From Clostridia bacterium (GTDB lineage: Bacteria > Bacillota > Clostridia > Oscillospirales > CAG-272): a DNA stretch of 64,000 nucleotides. Position 1 is the first letter of the stretch. The number at the start of each line of letters is the position of its first letter. Below the pieces are notes generated by a model that searched no databases, was not told the origin of the DNA, and saw only the letters and a program-made list of their open reading frames with translations. Both the position numbers and the translations under genes were made by a program. The stretch covers positions 4,456-68,455 of the forward strand of contig JAFQHD010000108.1 in assembly GCA_017398145.1 (NCBI GenBank), written 5' to 3'. Shown in pieces: positions 35,163-43,970 of this stretch.

Positions 35163-35191
35163 AATAAAACCTCTTATTTTTGGAGATAAAA

Positions 35192-36241
35192 ATGATCAAA
35201 AATACTTTACCCGAGACCAATCTTACAAAGCAGGATTTTTACTACGACCTGCCTTCTGAGCGTATTGCCCAGACCCCCTTGGCTGTCCGTGATTCCTCCA
35301 AGCTTATGTGCGTTTCTAAGGAAACGGGAGCACTTGAGCACAAGATATTCCGCGATATAATCGACTATCTGGAGGATGGCGATGTGCTTGTTATCAACGA
35401 TTCCAAGGTCATCCCCGCAAGGCTCTACGGAGTGAAGGAGGACAGCGGTATCGATATGGAGGTGCTTTTGCTTCGCTCACGCGGTCTTGACACCTGGGAG
35501 GTGCTCTGCCGTCCCGGAAGAAGGGCAAAGCCGGGTACTGTCATTATATTCGCAAACGGTCTTCTTCGTGCAACCGTAACCGACGTTATCGAGGACGGAA
35601 ACCGTATAGTTAAATTTGAATATGAGGGGGATAACCTATATTCCGTCTTTGACGAGATAGGTCATATGCCCCTGCCTCCATATATAACCGAAAAGTTAGA
35701 GGACAAGGACAGATACCAGACCGTATACGCAAACGAGCGCGGCTCTGCCGCAGCCCCCACCGCAGGTCTGCATTTTACTCCTGAATTACTTGAAAAGATC
35801 AAAGCAAAGGGTGTGCAGATAGCTCCGGTTATGCTCCACGTAGGTCTTGGAACCTTCCGTCCCGTAAAGGAGGATGCATTAGCCGACCACATAATGCACA
35901 GCGAATATATCAGCGTTTCAAAGGAAAGCGCCGATATCATCAATAACCGCAAGGGAAGGCTTATCTGCGTAGGCACCACCTCCTGCCGTACAATAGAGAG
36001 CGTTGCCACCGATGACGGCAAAATACAGCCTATCTCCGGTGACACGGGAATATTCATCTATCCCGGATATAGGTTCAAAGCGGTGGACGCGCTTATCACA
36101 AACTTCCATCTCCCCGAAAGCACATTGCTTATGCTTGTTTCAGCGTTTTCATCAAGAGAAATTATGCTTAACGCTTACGAAGAAGCAATTAAAAACGAAT
36201 ACAGATTCTTCAGCTTCGGAGATGCAATGTTTATACACTGA
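35192..36241 (+). CDS. queA: S-adenosylmethionine:tRNA ribosyltransferase-isomerase
   Basis: ORF 35180..36241. The [14 protein letters not shown]-terminus and GTTS/FHLP motifs are characteristic. GGAG 6 nt before the ATG at 35192. Confidence 0.92.
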
Positions 36242-36276
36242 AAAGACTCCTCAGGCAACCGCCTGAGGAGTCTTTT
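36241..36276. terminator. Bidirectional 16-bp terminator
   Basis: AAAAGACTCCTCAGGC-aacc-GCCTGAGGAGTCTTTT. Confidence 0.9.
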
Positions 36277-36287
36277 GTTCGCTTGTT

Positions 36288-39200
36288 TTATTCTACCGTG
36301 AAATTAACACGGTCGTATGTTCCGTCAATATATCTTACGTAGAGCGTATATTCACCTGCAGGGAGAGCTGCGCCATAGGTGTAGATGTTGCTGTCACCTA
36401 ACTTTGCGCTCGTCATACCGTAGTAGAGGTTGTTCTTGACCTCTCTGTAGGTGGAGTGTATTCCCTTGCCTATGTAGAGATCCTTGATATTTTCAAGGTC
36501 GCAGATATACGTACGTTTACCGTCGGATACGATTGAAGGAGTATCTGCAAGGGTTACCTTCACGCTTGCCTTTCTGAAGCTGCCGTTGTAGCTGCCGATA
36601 GTCAGAGCCGCAAACTCAGCGCCTGTTCCTTCGTAAGTGATGTCGGTAATATTACAGCCGTCAAAGGTTCCCTGTGCTATCTCAGTTACGTCCTTTGTTA
36701 TCTTAACGCTTGTGACGTTGGTTCCTCTGAACGCCTTTGCGGCGTTGTCGGTAGCAAGAGTTACCTCGCCCGTGAGGTTTGTACAGCCGTCAAACGCCTG
36801 TGTCAGATCCTCGATGCCGATAAGCTCGGGAGCGGAGGTAAGAGCAGTACACTTATAGAAGGCACCCTTAAGTATCTTAACACTTTCGGGAAGCTCGGGA
36901 GTCTCTGTAAGAGAACTGCATCCCCAGAATGCGTAGGTCATATTCTCTACTCCTTCGGGTATCGCGGGAGCAGATGTGAGAGCCGTACAATTCTTAAAGG
37001 TATTGTAAAGCACCTTTACACCCTCGGGAATTGCGAGAGCCTCGGTCATATTGGTACAGCCTGCAAAGGTCTTATAGAGCTGTGTTACGGGAAGTCCGTT
37101 GACCTCTGCTTCTATTGCACCGTAGGAGCTCAGAGTCTTGTCGTTTACTACTGCGTTCCAACCCTCGGGTGCGCCTGTTGCGTGATTGCTGTAATAGGTG
37201 TAGGTGTAATCACCGATAACCACCTGCTGACCGTCGGTGGGCTGAGCCGCACCGCAGGCACATACGCCGTCAATATAGATATGTCCGGTCACAGGCTCCT
37301 TTTCGGTATTGGAATACTCGTATACGTAATTTTCTTCACAACAGCCGTTTATGATATTACGGTATACGATATCGCCCTCTGCGTTGAGAGTGGGATATTC
37401 GTCTGTACCTATAGTCTGCGTCCAAACGGTAGGGATCACGGTTCCTATATATTCCCAGGTCTCCTCGTCGTAAACGTCCTCCTCGGGCTGAGCCGACTGG
37501 AGTAACCAGGTTATTTCACCGCTTGCTAACTGCTCTGCAGTTCTGCCGCCTTTGTCGTTGGCTTCAATCGCAAGATAATAGCTGTTGGTAAAGTCTTGTG
37601 CTATCTGGTTCTTCGTCGAGAAGTAGCCTGACTCAACGATACCGAGATTAAGACAGTTGGCTACGGGGTTGCCGTCACTGTTTCCTGCAATACCGCCCGT
37701 GTTGATAGTACCTGTAATATGTCCGGTATTGATACAGTTTACGATCTCACCGCTGTACATATTGCCGACGATACCGCCGGTGGAGCTGCCGGAATGATAG
37801 AAGCTTACGTCACCTGTATTGCTTGACTTGTAGATACCGCCGCCTATAAGGTAACCCACGAGACCGCCCATATCTCCCGATCCCACTACGGTCAGATCCG
37901 AGTGACAGTTGGTGATCACACTTTCGGCATTGGCAATAAGCGAGCCGACTTCACCGTCTGCTCTTAAATAACCGTTGGTGAGCTTGATGTTGGAAATGGG
38001 GTAATTATACATTGTGTTACCGAAAAGACCTGCCATATCCGCCTCGGGATCGTTCATATAAAGACCGCTTACCGTATGGTTGCGACCGTCAAAGGAACCG
38101 GTATAATAAGCATAGCCTTTACCGATGGGAGTCCAACTGCGAAGCTCGACTGCAGTGTCCTCTGCAGAGTAGCTTCCGTCCTGAGCAAATGTATAGCCGG
38201 GGTTAAGGTCGATGTCGGCTGTAAGCACTGCGTCACCGGTCACGGTGTTCCAGGTGTTAACGCTTCTTGCAAACCAGAAGAGATGTCCCGCCTTGGAAAT
38301 TTCGTAACGGTAGTTTTCTTCATCGAGATAAGCAGGCTCGTAGCCGCCGCATATTACGCAGAAGCCTTCTGCATCAAAGCTGTGGGCTTCGGTAGTGCTG
38401 TCGCACGCACCGCATACGCATACAAGCCAATGCTCGGTGTCGTTAAAATCATATTCAGCAAAATCGTGAGGCTCGGTGATTATCTCGCTGTCACAGCATA
38501 CGTGATATAAAGTATGAGTTCCCGTTTCCTCGTCGTAGAGGTAATAGGTCTCCTCGCTTGTATGGTTGTTCATATCGTAATCACCGAAGGAGTTGCCGCA
38601 GGTGGTACAATATTGTCTGTTCTGACAATCTGCCTCGTGTCCTGAGCAGGGCTGAGTTTCGGTGACGTTATACATCTCACATACCTCGCGTGTACAAACG
38701 TATCTGATATGATAAGCTTCACCCTCTACCGCCGTCCACTCAGAGGGAACGTGATAGCTGTCCTCTTCACTTAAAAGAGGAGTGTTGGAGTAATACATAT
38801 TCGTATTACCGCAGTCGTAGCCTGCGTAAACGGTTGCACCGCCAAGCACGGGGTAAGGATCGGTTCCGATGCTCTGTCCCCAGCTTTCGCCCAGAAGGTA
38901 AGCAACCTCTCCCGACTCAAACTGTTCAGAGGTCTTTGCACCGTTATCGTTTTCGGTATCTGCAAGATAATAGCTGCCCTCGGGACATATGCCGCTTGTG
39001 ATACCGCCGATCTCGCCGCTGTCGGTTACGGCGTTTGCCATACTGAAGCAGTTGTTTATCGAAGCCGAGCTGTCATTCATATTGGTACGCGCACCGACGA
39101 TACCGCCGACACCGCTGACGCCGCTGACATCGGTATTAATAACGAAGCAGTTTGTGATCTCGGATGCAGAGATACCTGCAATACCGCCTACCGAGTTTTC

Positions 39201-41948
39201 ACCGTTGATATAGGAATTGATTATACCGAGGTCTTTTATGATACCGCCCTCGCCCAGTACTCCGATAAAGCCGGTATAATATTCGTCGCGGTCAATATAG
39301 AGACCGGATACGGTGTGGCCGTTACCGTCAAAGGTACCGCCGTATCTGAAATTGTAAAAGTCATAGCCGATGGGAGTCCACTCTTCAAAGGTAACTCCCT
39401 CGGTATCAAAGGGTATGTCGTTTATAACGATATCAGCCATAAGTCTGCCGTTGACTCTTGCAACGCCGTCGTCGTAAACGTAACGGTTTATAAAGTCGGC
39501 AAACCAGTAGAGCTGACCCTTGTTGTATATCTCGTAATATCCGTCTTCTGCTAAGTGTGCAGGCTGTAAGCCGCATATCTCGCAGTAGCCGTCTTCGCTG
39601 TAGTGTTCCTCGGTGTTATACGCTTTTTCGTTGGTGTAGCCTATAGCTTCACCTGTTGAACAGAGCTTACCGTAATATACGGTATCTCCTTCAAATACGG
39701 GATATGCATCCTCACCTAAGGTCTGCTTCCAGCTTCCGTTATGGCTTTCACCGTTAAGGATCCAGGTCATCTCACCCGAAGTAAACTGCTCTGCAGTTCT
39801 GCCGCCTTCCGCCGTTTCGGTATCCGAGAGGTAGTAGCAGTTATCGACCGTAGGACTGTTATATCTGTAAGCTGCTATCTGCGCAACGTTATGATATCCT
39901 TCAACACTTCCGATGTTATAGCAGTTTTGCACGCCGGACTTGTTGTGATAACCTACGATGCCGCCTGCATCTGATTCATAATTCGCGGTCGTTCCCACAA
40001 CACTGCCGCTGTTATAGCAATCAGCGATCTCAGTACGGTAGTTGCTGCCTGCAATACCGCCTAAGTGGTACCATCCGGTCACCAGCCCCGTGTTATAGCA
40101 GCGGTATATCTTTGCTGTTGCCTGATAACCCGTGATACCGCCCGCACCTCCGCCTATGCCGGAGACAACGGTTGAGTTGCTGTGACAGTTATATACGGTG
40201 CTTGAGCTCTGTCCCGCTATAGCTCCTACGCTTTGGTTACCGCAAAAGTAAGAATCGGTAACGCCGAGATTGCGGATAACGCTTCCCGAGTGGGTATATT
40301 TGAACAGACCTATCTTATTATGGTTTGGATCATTATAGTATAATCCCTTGATATCATAGCCCCGTCCGTCAAAGATGCCTCTGAACTCATCAATGGGTGT
40401 CCATTCAAAGAGATTCGAGCCGTCTCCGATAAGCTCGCCGTTTTCATCTATTACCTTGCTGTTTACGGTAACGTCGTTGGTGAGAACGGCGTTTGCCCTT
40501 GGATTTTTCAATTCGTTGGGGAGAGTACCGTTTACGAGTGCCGCAAACCAATAGAGCTGACCTTCGTCACTTATCTCATATACGGAATCCTTTGCTCCGT
40601 CGTCGTTGACGTCGTATTTATCGGTAGTCAGCTCAGCGGGCCAAAATGTGATACCGTAATCGCCTATCTCGGTACCGATAAGATCGCTTGTGTTTCCTTT
40701 GATAAGACCGTAGTTTATGATCCTTCCGTTGTTGACGATATTGCCTTGAACGTCAAGGGTAACACCCTCTTCGATAAAGAGAATCTGATCTGCACCTATT
40801 GTCAGGGTATTGTCCTTGTTGACCGTCAGATCCTCGTAAAGGAAATATTTGTCCCGGTAAAGCGCGCCGTTCCCGTTCTGAAATACTATACCTCCGGTGA
40901 TAGAGGTCGTTACCGCAGAGCCATTTCCACTCTTGCCGATAGGTTCAGCGTCGGCTCCCGAGGTTGCAACAACGATTCCGCCCGTAATATTAACGTTACC
41001 CGGCGCCGTGTCTGATTTGGCAGGGCCGCTGCCGATAGCTGCACTGGCCCATAACGATGTAGCGCCCGACGCATTTACCCTGCCGCCGGATATGGTTATA
41101 TTACCGCAGGAACCCATGTAACCTCCGCCTATTGCGGCTCCCGCCCAACTAAACGTAGCCGTAGCAGTTACGTTGCCTCCGGTTACGGTTATGGTTCCGC
41201 CGGATCCTTCCTTACCGCCGCCGATGCCTGCGCCTGAGCCGTCGGACCGTGCAGTTATATTACCGCCGTTTATGGTGATGCTCTCACCGTTGCCCCCGTC
41301 GCCTCCGCCGCCGATAGCAGAGCCGTATAAAGAAATCGTTGCAACGACCGTACCGCCGTTTATGGTTATGGTACCGCTGTTGCCTCGCCAGCCTCCGCCG
41401 ATAGCAGCAGCGTGACTATTACCGTTAGATGTAACGGTACCTCCGTTTATGGTAATGGTTCCGCCGTTGCCGTCTTTACCACCGCCGATGCCTGCACCTG
41501 TACTGCTGGCCTGTACGGTTATGTTGCCACCGTTTATTGTGATGACCCCCGCACCGTTTTGGTTGTTGCCGCCGATAGCCGCCTGGTCATCGCCGGCACC
41601 GGCAACGATCTTTCCTTGCTTACTCGGATCTGCCGAAACGGCATAGATCGTAAGGCTGTTTCCCGAGTTTACTGCAATACCTGCGTTCGCCGTAAGAACG
41701 GCGTTATCTGCAAGGATGATATTACAGCTGCCGCTTACCGATATACGGGTGTCTGTAGTGAGGCTTCCCCTCACCAGCCACCACCCCTCGGAAAGGGTAG
41801 CTTCGCCTGCATAGACCTTATAGTCGGTGCAGGTCTGCTGATTTCCGTCTGCATCGATATACGTAATACCGTCTGCCGCAAAAGCGTAAAAGGGTATCAT
41901 ACCGATGAGCATTACTGCCGCAAGTAAAATACTGATAAGCTTTTTCAT
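36288..41948 (-). CDS. Giant secreted surface protein (1886 aa): beta-solenoid repeats, GLUG-motif modules, Cys-cluster linkers, C-terminal BspA-type LRRs
   Basis: Signal peptide MKKLISILLAAVMLIGMIPFYAFA. About 29-aa Gly-rich repeats (ITINGGxxT...GGG). Four modules with (Q)LYWFAxxVN followed by repeated GGIAG/GGIVG (GLUG-like). C-terminal LRR_5-like repeats (FxxCTxLTSAPxIPEGV). No LPXTG or SLH anchor seen. Confidence 0.85.
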   Translation of the reverse strand: MKKLISILLAAVMLIGMIPFYAFAADGITYIDADGNQQTCTDYKVYAGEATLSEGWWLVRGSLTTDTRISVSGSCNIILADNAVLTANAGIAVNSGNSLTIYAVSADPSKQGKIVAGAGDDQAAIGGNNQNGAGVITINGGNITVQASSTGAGIGGGKDGNGGTITINGGTVTSNGNSHAAAIGGGWRGNSGTITINGGTVVATISLYGSAIGGGGDGGNGESITINGGNITARSDGSGAGIGGGKEGSGGTITVTGGNVTATATFSWAGAAIGGGYMGSCGNITISGGRVNASGATSLWASAAIGSGPAKSDTAPGNVNITGGIVVATSGADAEPIGKSGNGSAVTTSITGGIVFQNGNGALYRDKYFLYEDLTVNKDNTLTIGADQILFIEEGVTLDVQGNIVNNGRIINYGLIKGNTSDLIGTEIGDYGITFWPAELTTDKYDVNDDGAKDSVYEISDEGQLYWFAALVNGTLPNELKNPRANAVLTNDVTVNSKVIDENGELIGDGSNLFEWTPIDEFRGIFDGRGYDIKGLYYNDPNHNKIGLFKYTHSGSVIRNLGVTDSYFCGNQSVGAIAGQSSSTVYNCHSNSTVVSGIGGGAGGITGYQATAKIYRCYNTGLVTGWYHLGGIAGSNYRTEIADCYNSGSVVGTTANYESDAGGIVGYHNKSGVQNCYNIGSVEGYHNVAQIAAYRYNSPTVDNCYYLSDTETAEGGRTAEQFTSGEMTWILNGESHNGSWKQTLGEDAYPVFEGDTVYYGKLCSTGEAIGYTNEKAYNTEEHYSEDGYCEICGLQPAHLAEDGYYEIYNKGQLYWFADFINRYVYDDGVARVNGRLMADIVINDIPFDTEGVTFEEWTPIGYDFYNFRYGGTFDGNGHTVSGLYIDRDEYYTGFIGVLGEGGIIKDLGIINSYINGENSVGGIAGISASEITNCFVINTDVSGVSGVGGIVGARTNMNDSSASINNCFSMANAVTDSGEIGGITSGICPEGSYYLADTENDNGAKTSEQFESGEVAYLLGESWGQSIGTDPYPVLGGATVYAGYDCGNTNMYYSNTPLLSEEDSYHVPSEWTAVEGEAYHIRYVCTREVCEMYNVTETQPCSGHEADCQNRQYCTTCGNSFGDYDMNNHTSEETYYLYDEETGTHTLYHVCCDSEIITEPHDFAEYDFNDTEHWLVCVCGACDSTTEAHSFDAEGFCVICGGYEPAYLDEENYRYEISKAGHLFWFARSVNTWNTVTGDAVLTADIDLNPGYTFAQDGSYSAEDTAVELRSWTPIGKGYAYYTGSFDGRNHTVSGLYMNDPEADMAGLFGNTMYNYPISNIKLTNGYLRADGEVGSLIANAESVITNCHSDLTVVGSGDMGGLVGYLIGGGIYKSSNTGDVSFYHSGSSTGGIVGNMYSGEIVNCINTGHITGTINTGGIAGNSDGNPVANCLNLGIVESGYFSTKNQIAQDFTNSYYLAIEANDKGGRTAEQLASGEITWLLQSAQPEEDVYDEETWEYIGTVIPTVWTQTIGTDEYPTLNAEGDIVYRNIINGCCEENYVYEYSNTEKEPVTGHIYIDGVCACGAAQPTDGQQVVIGDYTYTYYSNHATGAPEGWNAVVNDKTLSSYGAIEAEVNGLPVTQLYKTFAGCTNMTEALAIPEGVKVLYNTFKNCTALTSAPAIPEGVENMTYAFWGCSSLTETPELPESVKILKGAFYKCTALTSAPELIGIEDLTQAFDGCTNLTGEVTLATDNAAKAFRGTNVTSVKITKDVTEIAQGTFDGCNITDITYEGTGAEFAALTIGSYNGSFRKASVKVTLADTPSIVSDGKRTYICDLENIKDLYIGKGIHSTYREVKNNLYYGMTSAKLGDSNIYTYGAALPAGEYTLYVRYIDGTYDRVNFTVE

Positions 41949-41975
41949 ATATTTTTCCTCCTGAGAGTTTGTTTT

Positions 41976-42644
41976 TTAGGTTTGTGACTCGAGATATGCA
42001 AGCATATTTGAAATGACGTTTTGTGCTATAGTCGGATAATCGAACTTTGATACGAACTCTATTGCTTCGCTTATCTTTTCGTCCGGAACACGGTAGACCA
42101 AAAACGTGGTCTCAAGGAAACGTGCTACCTTTCTCTCCATTGTGAAATACATATCGCAGGGTACCGTCATAAAGTTACGCATAATTCCTGCCGATGCTAT
42201 TTCGTATTCGTAGAAATCCTTTGTTTCAAGGTCGGGAAGATGCTCCTTAAAAATATTTTCGAGCTTATGCGTGATCGCGTGATATATTATCGAAGAGGTT
42301 TTAGGCAAGGAATAGGACACCGAATACATCTCTCTGATATGCTCACTTGACTCTGCCATATAAAGCTGCAGAGTAGTCTCTGCCGCATAAAACAGTATCT
42401 TGTCGTCCGTAATGCCGCAAAGCATTTGTTCGATGGATTTGAACTGTCCCTCAAGCACGTAGGCAACAAGCTCACAGAGTATGTCCTCCTTTGAGCCGCA
42501 GGCTCGTATCATTGCACTTAAGTTGATACCTGCCTCGTCGGCAATATCCCTTACCGTGGATTCGGTATAGCCCTTTGCCAAAAAGAGCTTTGCCGCCGCG
42601 TTCAGACATTTGCTTTTATTGGCTTGTGTTTTACTTGTTGCCAT
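41976..42644 (-). CDS. TetR-family transcriptional regulator
   Basis: ORF 41976..42734; the ATG at 42644 follows GGAAGAGAG. TetR HTH (CLNAAAKLFLAKGYTESTVRDIADEAGINLSAM). It ends 27 nt before the giant-protein start. Confidence 0.8.
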   Translation of the reverse strand: MATSKTQANKSKCLNAAAKLFLAKGYTESTVRDIADEAGINLSAMIRACGSKEDILCELVAYVLEGQFKSIEQMLCGITDDKILFYAAETTLQLYMAESSEHIREMYSVSYSLPKTSSIIYHAITHKLENIFKEHLPDLETKDFYEYEIASAGIMRNFMTVPCDMYFTMERKVARFLETTFLVYRVPDEKISEAIEFVSKFDYPTIAQNVISNMLAYLESQT

Positions 42645-42668
42645 ATATTTACTCTCTTCCCAAATAAC

Positions 42669-42692
42669 AACGCGTTCCGAAACGCGTTTCGG
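42669..42692. promoter_or_regulatory. Perfect palindromes upstream of the TetR gene, a likely operator
   Basis: AACGCGTT (42669-42676) and CCGAAACGCGTTTCGG (42677-42692, 16-bp perfect palindrome). Confidence 0.6.
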
Positions 42693-42821
42693 TTTGTGTA
42701 TTGGAATTATAACACAGGACTCCGAGTTTGTCAATATTCGGTTTACATTTTGTTTAAAAATCAGCGAAAATTATCTTTGGTTTTCTTGTGAGAACGAAAA
42801 AGATCATATACAATTTCCGTT

Positions 42822-42850
42822 TTGACAAACGGGTGTAAATATGATATAAT
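42822..42850 (+). promoter_or_regulatory. Consensus promoter TTGACA-17-TATAAT upstream of the miaA leader
   Basis: TTGACA at 42822-42827 and TATAAT at 42845-42850. Confidence 0.75.
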
Positions 42851-42856
42851 TAAAAA

Positions 42857-43055
42857 CGTATGAAAGGAAGCTGATACAGTATGTCAGATAAAATAAAAAA
42901 ATCCCCCAAAAGCTGACGCTTTCGGGGGAACCCCCGATTAGACCCGTACGCTCGCGCCGCACTCACCGTGCGCGGGTCTGCAAGGTGTAAAAACCGTGGC
43001 ACATGTCCCCGGTTTTTACGGATTTTAATTGTATCGTTTACTGAAGGTGTTGAAT
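42857..43055 (+). promoter_or_regulatory. Structured about 200-nt miaA leader with an 11-codon uORF that duplicates the miaA start
   Basis: uORF 42881-42916 (MSDKIKKSPKS). Mutually exclusive pairings TCCCCC 42902-07 / GGGGGA 42924-29 versus TCGGGGG 42922-28 / CCCCCGA 42931-37. Long hairpin 42940-42979. Terminator-like GTAAAAACCG 42987-96 / CGGTTTTTAC 43010-19. Confidence 0.5.
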
Positions 43056-43970
43056 ATGTCGGATAAAATAAAAATAGCCGCCGTTGTAGGGCCTACCGCA
43101 GGAGGAAAGACCTCTCTTGCCGTAGAGCTTGCAAAAAGAGCAAACGGTGAGATAATCTGCTGCGATTCAATGCAGATATACGAACAAATGAAGATAGGCT
43201 CGGCTGCGCCTACCGAAGAGGAAAAGCAGGGAATACCACATCATCTTTTTGATTTCGTTCCCGTGGACGTGAACTTTTCCGCTGCCGAATATGTTCCTCT
43301 TGCAAGAAAGGCTATAGAGAATATTGCGGGCAGAGGTAAGCTTCCCATACTCTGCGGAGGTACGGGACTTTATCTTGAGAGCCTTATGTACCAGAGCGAT
43401 TACAGCCCTTCGGTAGATCCTTCTATAAGAGTTGAATTACAGACTAAGGACGATGATACTCTCTATAATATGCTTTCAGAGTATGATCCCGAATCTGCAA
43501 ATACTATACACAAAAATAACCGTAAGAGAGTCATCCGCGCTCTTGAAATATATTTAGGTACGGGAAAGACCAAGACCGAGTGGGACGCTCTTTCGAGAAC
43601 TAAGGAAAGCATCTACGATGCTCGTGTTTTTGTCCTCTCATACCGTGACCGCGAGACACTCTACGAGCGCATCAACCGCCGTGTGGATATTATGTTTGAT
43701 ATGGGTCTTGTGGATGAGGTGAAGTCTATAGATTTTCCCGAAGGCTCGACTGCGGGAGATGCCATAGGCTATAAGGAATTAAGAGAATATTTCAAGGGTA
43801 ATATCACTCTTGAAGAAGCAAAAGAAAACATAAAGCAGGCGACCCGCCGATATGCCAAGCGGCAGATAACTTGGTTCAAGAGAGAAAAAAGCGCGGTATC
43901 TCTCTATGCCGACGATCATAACAGCCTTGACGATATTGTAAACATTGTATTAAACCACTTAACAAAATAG
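43056..43970 (+). CDS. miaA: tRNA dimethylallyltransferase
   Basis: ORF 43029..43970. P-loop GPTAGGKT and the motif DSMQIY. GAAGG 8 nt before the ATG at 43056. Confidence 0.92.
   Translation: MSDKIKIAAVVGPTAGGKTSLAVELAKRANGEIICCDSMQIYEQMKIGSAAPTEEEKQGIPHHLFDFVPVDVNFSAAEYVPLARKAIENIAGRGKLPILCGGTGLYLESLMYQSDYSPSVDPSIRVELQTKDDDTLYNMLSEYDPESANTIHKNNRKRVIRALEIYLGTGKTKTEWDALSRTKESIYDARVFVLSYRDRETLYERINRRVDIMFDMGLVDEVKSIDFPEGSTAGDAIGYKELREYFKGNITLEEAKENIKQATRRYAKRQITWFKREKSAVSLYADDHNSLDDIVNIVLNHLTK

Follow-up and report, generated by a model that had tools for sequence, protein, structure and literature searches.

The leader of the gene miaA was analysed in a stretch of 64,000 nucleotides (nt) of the Clostridia bacterium contig JAFQHD010000108.1, hereafter called the window. 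In this leader, a consensus promoter, an 11-codon upstream open reading frame (uORF) that copies the start of miaA, and a GC-rich block of hairpins, termed element E, precede the gene. With a probability of roughly 0.7, the region would represent a recombination joint in the hypervariable interval between queA and miaA and not a purpose-built attenuator, with E being a separate, maintained folded element. The uORF and the duplicated start are ordinary genome mosaicism. As judged from alignments with relatives, the uORF is the orphaned original miaA start, i.e., a vestige of recombination, and E is a distinct, pre-existing element under selective maintenance, whose loops and bulges are conserved and whose stems covary.

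The miaA leader and its two halves

Orthologous miaA loci were obtained from a scan of genome collections, together with the contigs of MiaA homologues and of proteins containing translated E. All leader features listed in an earlier, sequence-only reading of this DNA were recovered in place, and all of them go beyond chance. The sigma-70-type consensus promoter on the plus strand (42822-42850; TTGACA at 42822-42827, a 17-nt spacer, TATAAT at 42845-42850), which had been described as perfect, scores 12/12 in a promoter scan and includes an extended -10 TG at 42842-42843. At a distance of 25-30 nt from it lies the vestigial miaA translation start with the uORF (42862-42916, plus strand), composed of the ribosome-binding site (RBS) GAAAGGAAG at 42862-42870, an ATG at 42881 and a TGA at 42914-42916. 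The uORF indeed reads MSDKIKKSPKS-stop (42881-42916); its 11 codons are the first six codons of miaA fused to E, that is, MiaA residues 1-6 followed by read-through into the first hairpin, H1, in whose loop the stop codon sits. The gene miaA itself (43056-43970, plus strand) encodes a tRNA dimethylallyltransferase of 304 amino acids with the Pfam family IPT/IPPT (PF01745/PF01715). The homologues P0009 and P0010 of its product carry the NCBI name MiaA, and an identical MiaA protein was found only on metagenome contigs, where the leader is identical, too.

The direct repeat of the two miaA starts, claimed to match at 18 of 19 positions, was confirmed and can be extended to 24/28 matches (42880-42907 versus 43055-43082, spacing 175); neither value was reached in any of 300 dinucleotide-preserving shuffles of 42600-43300. 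Between the two copies, the GC-rich stretch that had been noticed amounts to 60% G+C (42900-43020), compared with 46.6% in the whole window and about 31% in the flanks, and it holds the three hairpins H1 (42902-42929), H2 (42940-42979) and H3 (42987-43019). Next come a remnant copy of the 3' end of queA and a second RBS (43032-43049, plus strand; TATCG..TTTACTGA, then GAAGGTG). According to the alignment with L011, L006 and L008, this queA-tail remnant at 43032-43044 is a degenerate copy of the last queA codons, and queA of the window likewise ends with ...TTTATACACTGA. On the minus strand, an intrinsic-terminator-like site is found at 42890-42929, where a 12-bp stem, H1', including one G.U pair (42929..42902) is followed by TTTTTTTATT, i.e., U7AU4. 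The proposed antisense terminator is therewith the strongest terminator-like site of the region in the terminator scan, albeit one specific to this arrangement, because its U-tract arose when the A-rich duplicated miaA start became fused to H1.

Many arrangements are found upstream of miaA within one clade of uncultured ruminant/hindgut Clostridia. In arrangement (i), the empty site, the queA stop codon is followed after 12-15 nt by miaA (L006-L008). Arrangement (ii), designated A', consists of the queA stop codon, the hairpin block E and miaA, without promoter, uORF and duplicated start (L011 and L010, the latter with an extra H1 fragment). Arrangement (iii), designated B, is made up of a divergent tetR gene, a consensus promoter, an RBS and miaA, without hairpins (L092, L104-106); the promoter preceding miaA in L104-106 is equivalent to that of the window. 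The window type, arrangement (iv), recurs in L004 and L005. Small toxin-antitoxin islets separate queA from miaA in arrangement (v) (L102, L103, L091), and different upstream genes with a promoter of their own are found in arrangement (vi) (L009, L090, L107-109).

The two halves of the leader align with different members of this series. Positions 42700-42900 of the window align to the tetR-miaA spacer of L092, including the promoter, the RBS and the start 'ATGTCAGAxAAxATAAAAA', and this homology stops at miaA codon 6-7. The left half (promoter, RBS, ATGTCAGATAAAATAAAAA) thus matches relatives with a divergent tetR, in which the promoter drives miaA directly and hairpins are missing. Positions 42900-43110 align to the queA-E-miaA loci L011 and L010, the queA-tail remnant included, and the right half, comprising the hairpin block, the queA-tail remnant, the second RBS and the real miaA start, matches relatives devoid of the uORF. 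Because the left half aligns with L092, the upstream miaA start would correspond to the start that is driven by the tetR-linked promoter in arrangement (iii) and is orphaned here.

Relative to arrangement (i), the inserted DNA comprises a terminator hairpin, a surface-protein gene and tetR (41976-42644, minus strand). As a block between queA and E, it spans 36242-42900 and includes the terminator hairpin, a gene for 1886 amino acids on the minus strand, tetR on the minus strand, divergent promoters and the orphan miaA start. The queA gene (35180-36241), 6.6 kb upstream, directly abuts this block. The inserted DNA is flanked by direct repeats of target sequence, namely the 24/28 miaA-start repeat and the queA-end copies at 36216-36241 and 43032-43044. 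In the proposed scenario, the left part of B up to miaA codon 6-7 would have become fused to E of A' at the left edge of E. The miaA start would be duplicated because both parental configurations brought one. The upstream copy would have retained its promoter and RBS and would now run into E, forming the 11-codon frame that ends in the H1 loop. Recombination would probably have been anchored by miaA homology and would have created its joint at the left edge of E either illegitimately or at a secondary site. Between the queA tail (ATGTTCATACACTAAGCC) and the start of miaA (ATGTCAGATAAAATAAAAATAGCC) there is some resemblance. The suggestion that the leader is the scar of an insertion carrying a duplication was essentially right; more exactly, it would be a joint of two upstream configurations.

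SXT/R391 elements are known to supply a new promoter and 5' end to prfC, and gene-end duplications at insertion joints and homology-facilitated illegitimate recombination are known as well. The joint described here resembles this type in that a promoter and the initial codons of the target arrive with the inserted DNA, a second gene end is left behind, and direct repeats of the target flank the insertion. It differs in that the incoming copy is the orphaned one, with the resident copy staying on the gene, in that no recombinase gene is associated, and in that the repeats vary by event.

The block would later have been exchanged between species, with a breakpoint within miaA. Between 40456 and about 43650, identity of the window to L004 amounts to 95-99%, compared with 70-82% downstream. 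The highly identical stretch takes in the surface-protein gene with its 5' part, continues over tetR, the spacer and E, and ends ~600 nt into miaA, which indicates, as far as sequence comparison can tell, a recent exchange with a recombination breakpoint inside miaA. Since the block has been exchanged so recently, the agreement of the uORF between window and L004 is no evidence of selection.

The uORF and attenuation of miaA

In the window, miaA is probably transcribed from the consensus promoter through the translated vestigial frame and through E. The uORF, whose RBS looks functional, is probably translated, and its ribosomes would open H1. This architecture bears a likeness to the leader-peptide attenuators trpL, hisL and pheL, in which a short frame near a strong promoter is followed by GC-rich hairpins before the structural gene, and ribosomes on that frame overlap the first hairpin. 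The sequence-only reading had proposed that the uORF serves as a leader peptide whose translation speed, set by i6A37-modified tRNAs at UCA and UCC together with the A7 run, would pick the hairpin that forms and, by termination at H3, exert feedback on miaA. Such self-attenuation is very improbable, even though several features speak for it. The uORF has a good RBS, the same as that of miaA in L092, and lies close to the consensus promoter; with the stop codon in the H1 loop, ribosomes have to open H1 when they terminate; on the plus strand, H3 shows an A-tract/U-tract architecture and a U-rich tail; and it is established knowledge that miaA mutations alter leader-peptide attenuation of other operons. 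In a literature search, effects of MiaA on leader-peptide attenuation of other operons were found, and no case of a miaA self-attenuator.

Against this proposal stands that its parts occur separately. The uORF is missing, along with the duplicated start and the promoter, wherever E sits in its native context (L010, L011, L100), and L092 and L104 have promoter, RBS and start but no E. It had been suggested to check whether miaA leaders in related genomes have the same uORF and hairpins; the hairpins are present in L010, L011 and L100, but a uORF is found, besides the window, only in L004 and L005 and there without its stop codon. In these two loci, the TGA in the H1 loop is replaced, which results in a 61-codon frame through the whole of E that stops 8-10 nt beyond the miaA ATG and is also called as protein P0122. 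The two uORF lineages, moreover, have it in common by recent exchange. The competing pairings with the G-run are possible on paper, but alternative (antiterminator) pairings have no covariation in the alignment of E. The GC core of H3, despite its A-tract/U-tract form, is weak (-5.6 kcal/mol), and the plus-strand terminator scan makes no call there; E folds better on the opposite strand; and UNN (Ser) codons account for just two of the 11 codons. With regard to trpL, hisL and pheL, the uORF differs in that it duplicates the start of the downstream gene in truncated form, is not conserved together with the hairpins, and has neither a regulatory codon run nor a covariation-backed terminator/antiterminator. 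A short frame that copies the start of the downstream gene beside hairpins can mimic an attenuator; here it would be the footprint of gene-flank shuffling, and presence or absence in relatives is what tells the two apart.

The joint also created an A AAA AAA heptamer in the uORF (42893-42901), which is a classic -1 slippery sequence. A -1 shift at this heptamer would extend the frame to a TAA at the start of H3; this is probably incidental.

Element E: conservation, copies and strand

Element E (about 130 nt, 42901-43030; strand provisional, minus favoured) is a conserved structured module with a covariance-model match of 160.6 bits. Besides H1 and H3, it consists, in plus coordinates, of helix P1' (42932-42936/42981-42985) and of H2, which is a three-way structure. 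H2 contains a covarying arm (42959-42962/42968-42971) and, on the minus strand, a mini-hairpin with a GCGA tetraloop. Conservation of E exceeds that of its surroundings. Identity to the window is 96.7% in L011, versus 53% at fourfold sites and 79-91% in the coding sequence of miaA; it is 87.6% in L010, versus 45% and 70-79%, respectively, and 91-94% in L100, where queA is 77% identical. The substitutions are located in the H1 loop, one linker and the stems, while the internal loop (GUACGCUCGCGCC, plus strand) and the whole of H3 are invariant. Five pair changes are two-sided; the inner arm of H2 accounts for three of them, and H1 and P1' for one each. The observed scores for pairing and covariation were reached by 0-1 of 500 shuffles, and in slid controls pairing falls to ~50%.

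Copies of E in relatives are found in L004, L010, L011, L100 (3.5-fold) and L102 (partial). In native copies, H1 starts 0-1 nt after the stop codon, and the orientation is constant. The copy of L102 is without H2-H3, and H1 plus linker is duplicated there at both borders of a 0.9-kb islet. In L100 (9844-10481), queA is followed by a tandem array of 3.5 units of 183 nt with 89% matches. In each unit, 26 nt copied from the 3' end of queA are followed by E and then by a spacer of ~35 nt; the last unit breaks off inside H2, and other DNA follows. The array is followed by a surface-protein gene of the window type in convergent orientation. Searching translated E in the plus frame against 1.84 billion protein representatives returned P0121, P0122 and P0123. 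P0121, encoded on L100, is a 170-amino acid 'protein' of three in-frame E copies, and it was called across the array because the 183-nt period keeps one frame open. An E with a different 5' arm of H1 is seen in L101 (145-300; a 1.3-kb contig of coverage 1), where it is followed by the right flank of the window up to the miaA ATG and then by unrelated coding sequence. This contig could reflect a further rearrangement at the start of miaA or be chimeric through assembly, and it was not used as evidence.

The window and 93 loci (~640 kb of related sequence) were scanned with a covariance model (R1) built from seven E copies, which revealed no diverged or further copies. The window has one copy, and in the related loci the interval between queA and miaA is the sole site of copies, whose orientation does not vary. 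Plasmid and phage collections yielded no match. Pattern scans for the internal loop and H3 gave six high-GC chance matches and then none in viral contigs, and six high-GC chance matches in metagenome contigs, a collection evidently without these organisms. In Rfam 15, no match was obtained in the region at gathering thresholds; the best permissive match was NsiR1 with 21.5 bits, compared with a gathering threshold of 39, and it covers the terminator hairpin only. No tRNA or tmRNA was detected in the region by ARAGORN. Translated E in the minus frame found no match in the protein search, and P0121 as query returned only itself.

Several identities were considered for E and rejected. A coding function is contradicted by compensatory stem changes that produce non-conservative residues and by an in-frame stop codon in the window and L011. 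P0124 is an unrelated repeat protein that has nothing but a 'TCPRF' word in common with translated E. Upon inspection, E has neither the R''/R' core sites of an integron attC nor a GTAG-type REP signature, nor does it mimic a tRNA anticodon arm for QueA, TGT or MiaA, since no loop has U33-G34-U35 or A36-A37-A38 in register. An interspersed repeat or miniature inverted-repeat transposable element is not compatible with a single copy in the window and with one orientation and only the queA-miaA site among the loci searched.

For assignment of the strand, one alignment with identical pairs was evaluated on both strands. Standard pairs make up 93.9% of the cells on the minus strand and 86.6% on the plus strand. 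Helix P1' (CCUUG/CGGGG) is 100% paired on the minus strand, including two G.U pairs and one compensation from G-C to A-U, and has two C x A mismatches on the plus strand; an internal position of H1 is G.U on the minus strand and A x C on the plus strand. The consensus energy calculated by RNAalifold is -58.1 kcal/mol (minus) versus -48.4 kcal/mol (plus), the minimum free energy of the single sequence is -64.5 versus -54.0 kcal/mol, and the fold z-score is -4.9 (minus, 176 nt) versus -2.9 (plus, 219 nt). The GCGA mini-hairpin, which is of the GNRA type, forms on the minus strand only. A TACAAT-like hexamer lies 8 nt before H3' on the minus strand in most copies, with poor -35 regions.

A number of observations weigh against the interpretation of the region as a recombination joint next to a maintained element with the minus strand favoured. 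The alignment of E comprises six distinct sequences from one narrow clade, with covariation from few events, and the partial copy of L102 has an A x A mismatch at an H1 position. The strand call depends on a handful of positions with G.U versus A x C. Promoters for the minus strand are weak upstream of E and not consistently present, reaching 9/12 in L011 and one L100 unit, with none in the window. The U-tract after H1' exists only in the window, L004 and L005; L010, L011, L100 and L102 have CTTAGTGTAT or similar sequences. The plus strand is certainly transcribed, either from the operon or from the consensus promoter. The uORF has a working RBS, and ribosomes on it must melt H1, which may have some effect on miaA expression. 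Finally, no recombinase gene was seen in the loci examined, and the exact mechanism of recombination is one that we infer.

Possible roles of E and the surroundings of the interval

Regarding the role of E, a tentative preference, short of even odds, is given to a putative small antisense RNA of ~125 nt, transcribed from the minus strand and ending at H1'. By pairing with the part of the sense transcript that lies between queA (or the promoter) and miaA, such an RNA would modulate read-through, processing or stability of that transcript. It is also conceivable, if somewhat doubtful, that E acts on the sense strand as a module of the queA 3' untranslated region (UTR) and the miaA 5' UTR, i.e., as a stabiliser, an insulator or a partial terminator that sets transcription into miaA, and that it might release a small RNA derived from the 3' UTR. 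The constant orientation of E relative to queA and miaA, its start 0-1 nt after the stop codon, the conserved U-rich tail after H3 and the certain transcription of the plus strand agree with such a sense module. Moreover, since no promoter is evident between E and miaA in L010 and L011, miaA must be read through E in these loci. At three positions with G.U on the minus strand, however, conserved mismatches (A x C or C x A) are present on the plus strand, whose consensus energy is worse by 10 kcal/mol; the array of L100 is followed by a convergent gene instead of miaA, and the close relatives L006-L008 manage without E.

Quite unlikely is a role of E chiefly as DNA, by which small integrating cassettes at the 3' end of queA would use its folded minus strand as attachment or arm region, tandem units would reflect repeated integration, and effects at the RNA level would be incidental. 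In its favour, the queA-miaA interval is an insertion hotspot with islets flanked by 35-nt direct repeats of either the local target (L103) or H1 plus linker (L102), each 183-nt unit of L100 holds a 26-nt queA-end copy, close relatives differ in having or lacking E at exactly one site, and the stem sequences are strongly conserved. It is difficult to reconcile with the lack of any integrase or transposase Pfam match in the called genes of all loci (3-10 kb of flank each), with direct repeats that vary by event, which would be unexpected for one site-specific recombinase, with the absence of integron-type core sites upon inspection, and with the absence of copies at other loci searched, in plasmids or in phages. 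More far-reaching, and unlikely, is that E stands for an undescribed class of small structured antisense RNA controlling queA and miaA by pairing, or for a new folded-DNA recombination site seeding cassettes beside queA in Firmicutes. For now, E is a modest new candidate structured element, without an Rfam match, from a few metagenome-assembled genomes of a narrow uncultured clade; it would merit description in case it turns out to regulate tRNA-modification genes as an RNA or to act as a site of recombination.

Tandemly amplified small-RNA genes are known from the NsiR1 array of Nostocales and from LhrC1-4 of Listeria. The array of L100 resembles them in its structured units of ~125 nt that end in a GC-rich hairpin and are arranged head-to-tail with a short spacer (183-nt period). 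It differs in that the Rfam match of E is confined to the terminator hairpin, the native terminal hairpin has no U-tract, the unit includes the tail of a neighbouring gene, and any promoter of the single units is putative. With REP/BIME, ERIC, BOX and MIRU elements, E has in common that it is a GC-rich hairpin element in an operon spacer, is present or absent in close relatives and varies in tandem copy number; as in MIRU, the unit length (183 nt) is divisible by three. Unlike these elements, E occurs at one locus and in one orientation, and no dispersed copies were found. Unlike generic repeats, it has covarying stems and invariant loops, which points to a specific function.

The queA-miaA spacer is herewith documented as a hotspot for toxin-antitoxin islets and for a surface-protein island. 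In L103 (1507-2524), a 983-bp islet with ParE and a helix-turn-helix protein lies between 35-nt direct repeats of the queA end plus spacer, and in L102 (7014-7959), a 911-bp DUF4160/DUF2442 islet lies between the 35-nt repeats of H1 plus linker. L091 (~2340-2500) contains a RelB/YafQ islet with a queA-end remnant adjoining miaA. At these three islets, no recombinase gene was seen.

Within the inserted block of the window, tetR has a second perfect consensus promoter of its own on the minus strand (42669-42734; TTGACA at 42734, 17 nt, TATAAT at 42706). After this promoter, a repeated palindrome, AACGCGTTCCGAAACGCGTT, is found (42669-42692), which is likely to be the TetR operator, as judged from its sequence and position; a similar motif is kept in L092 and L104. 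The gene at 36288-41948 (minus strand) encodes a repetitive protein of 1886 amino acids with a signal-peptide-like N-terminus and weak or faint Pfam matches to beta-helix and LRR_5 families, which is probably a cell-surface protein. It travels together with tetR as inserted block and is 84% identical to the copy of L100. Between this gene and the convergent queA, there is a GC-rich hairpin with A-tract and T-tract (36243-36275; AAAAGACTCCTCAGGC..GCCTGAGGAGTCTTTT), which is likely a bidirectional terminator. L100 has two copies of a homologous hairpin, bracketing an extra ~370 nt.

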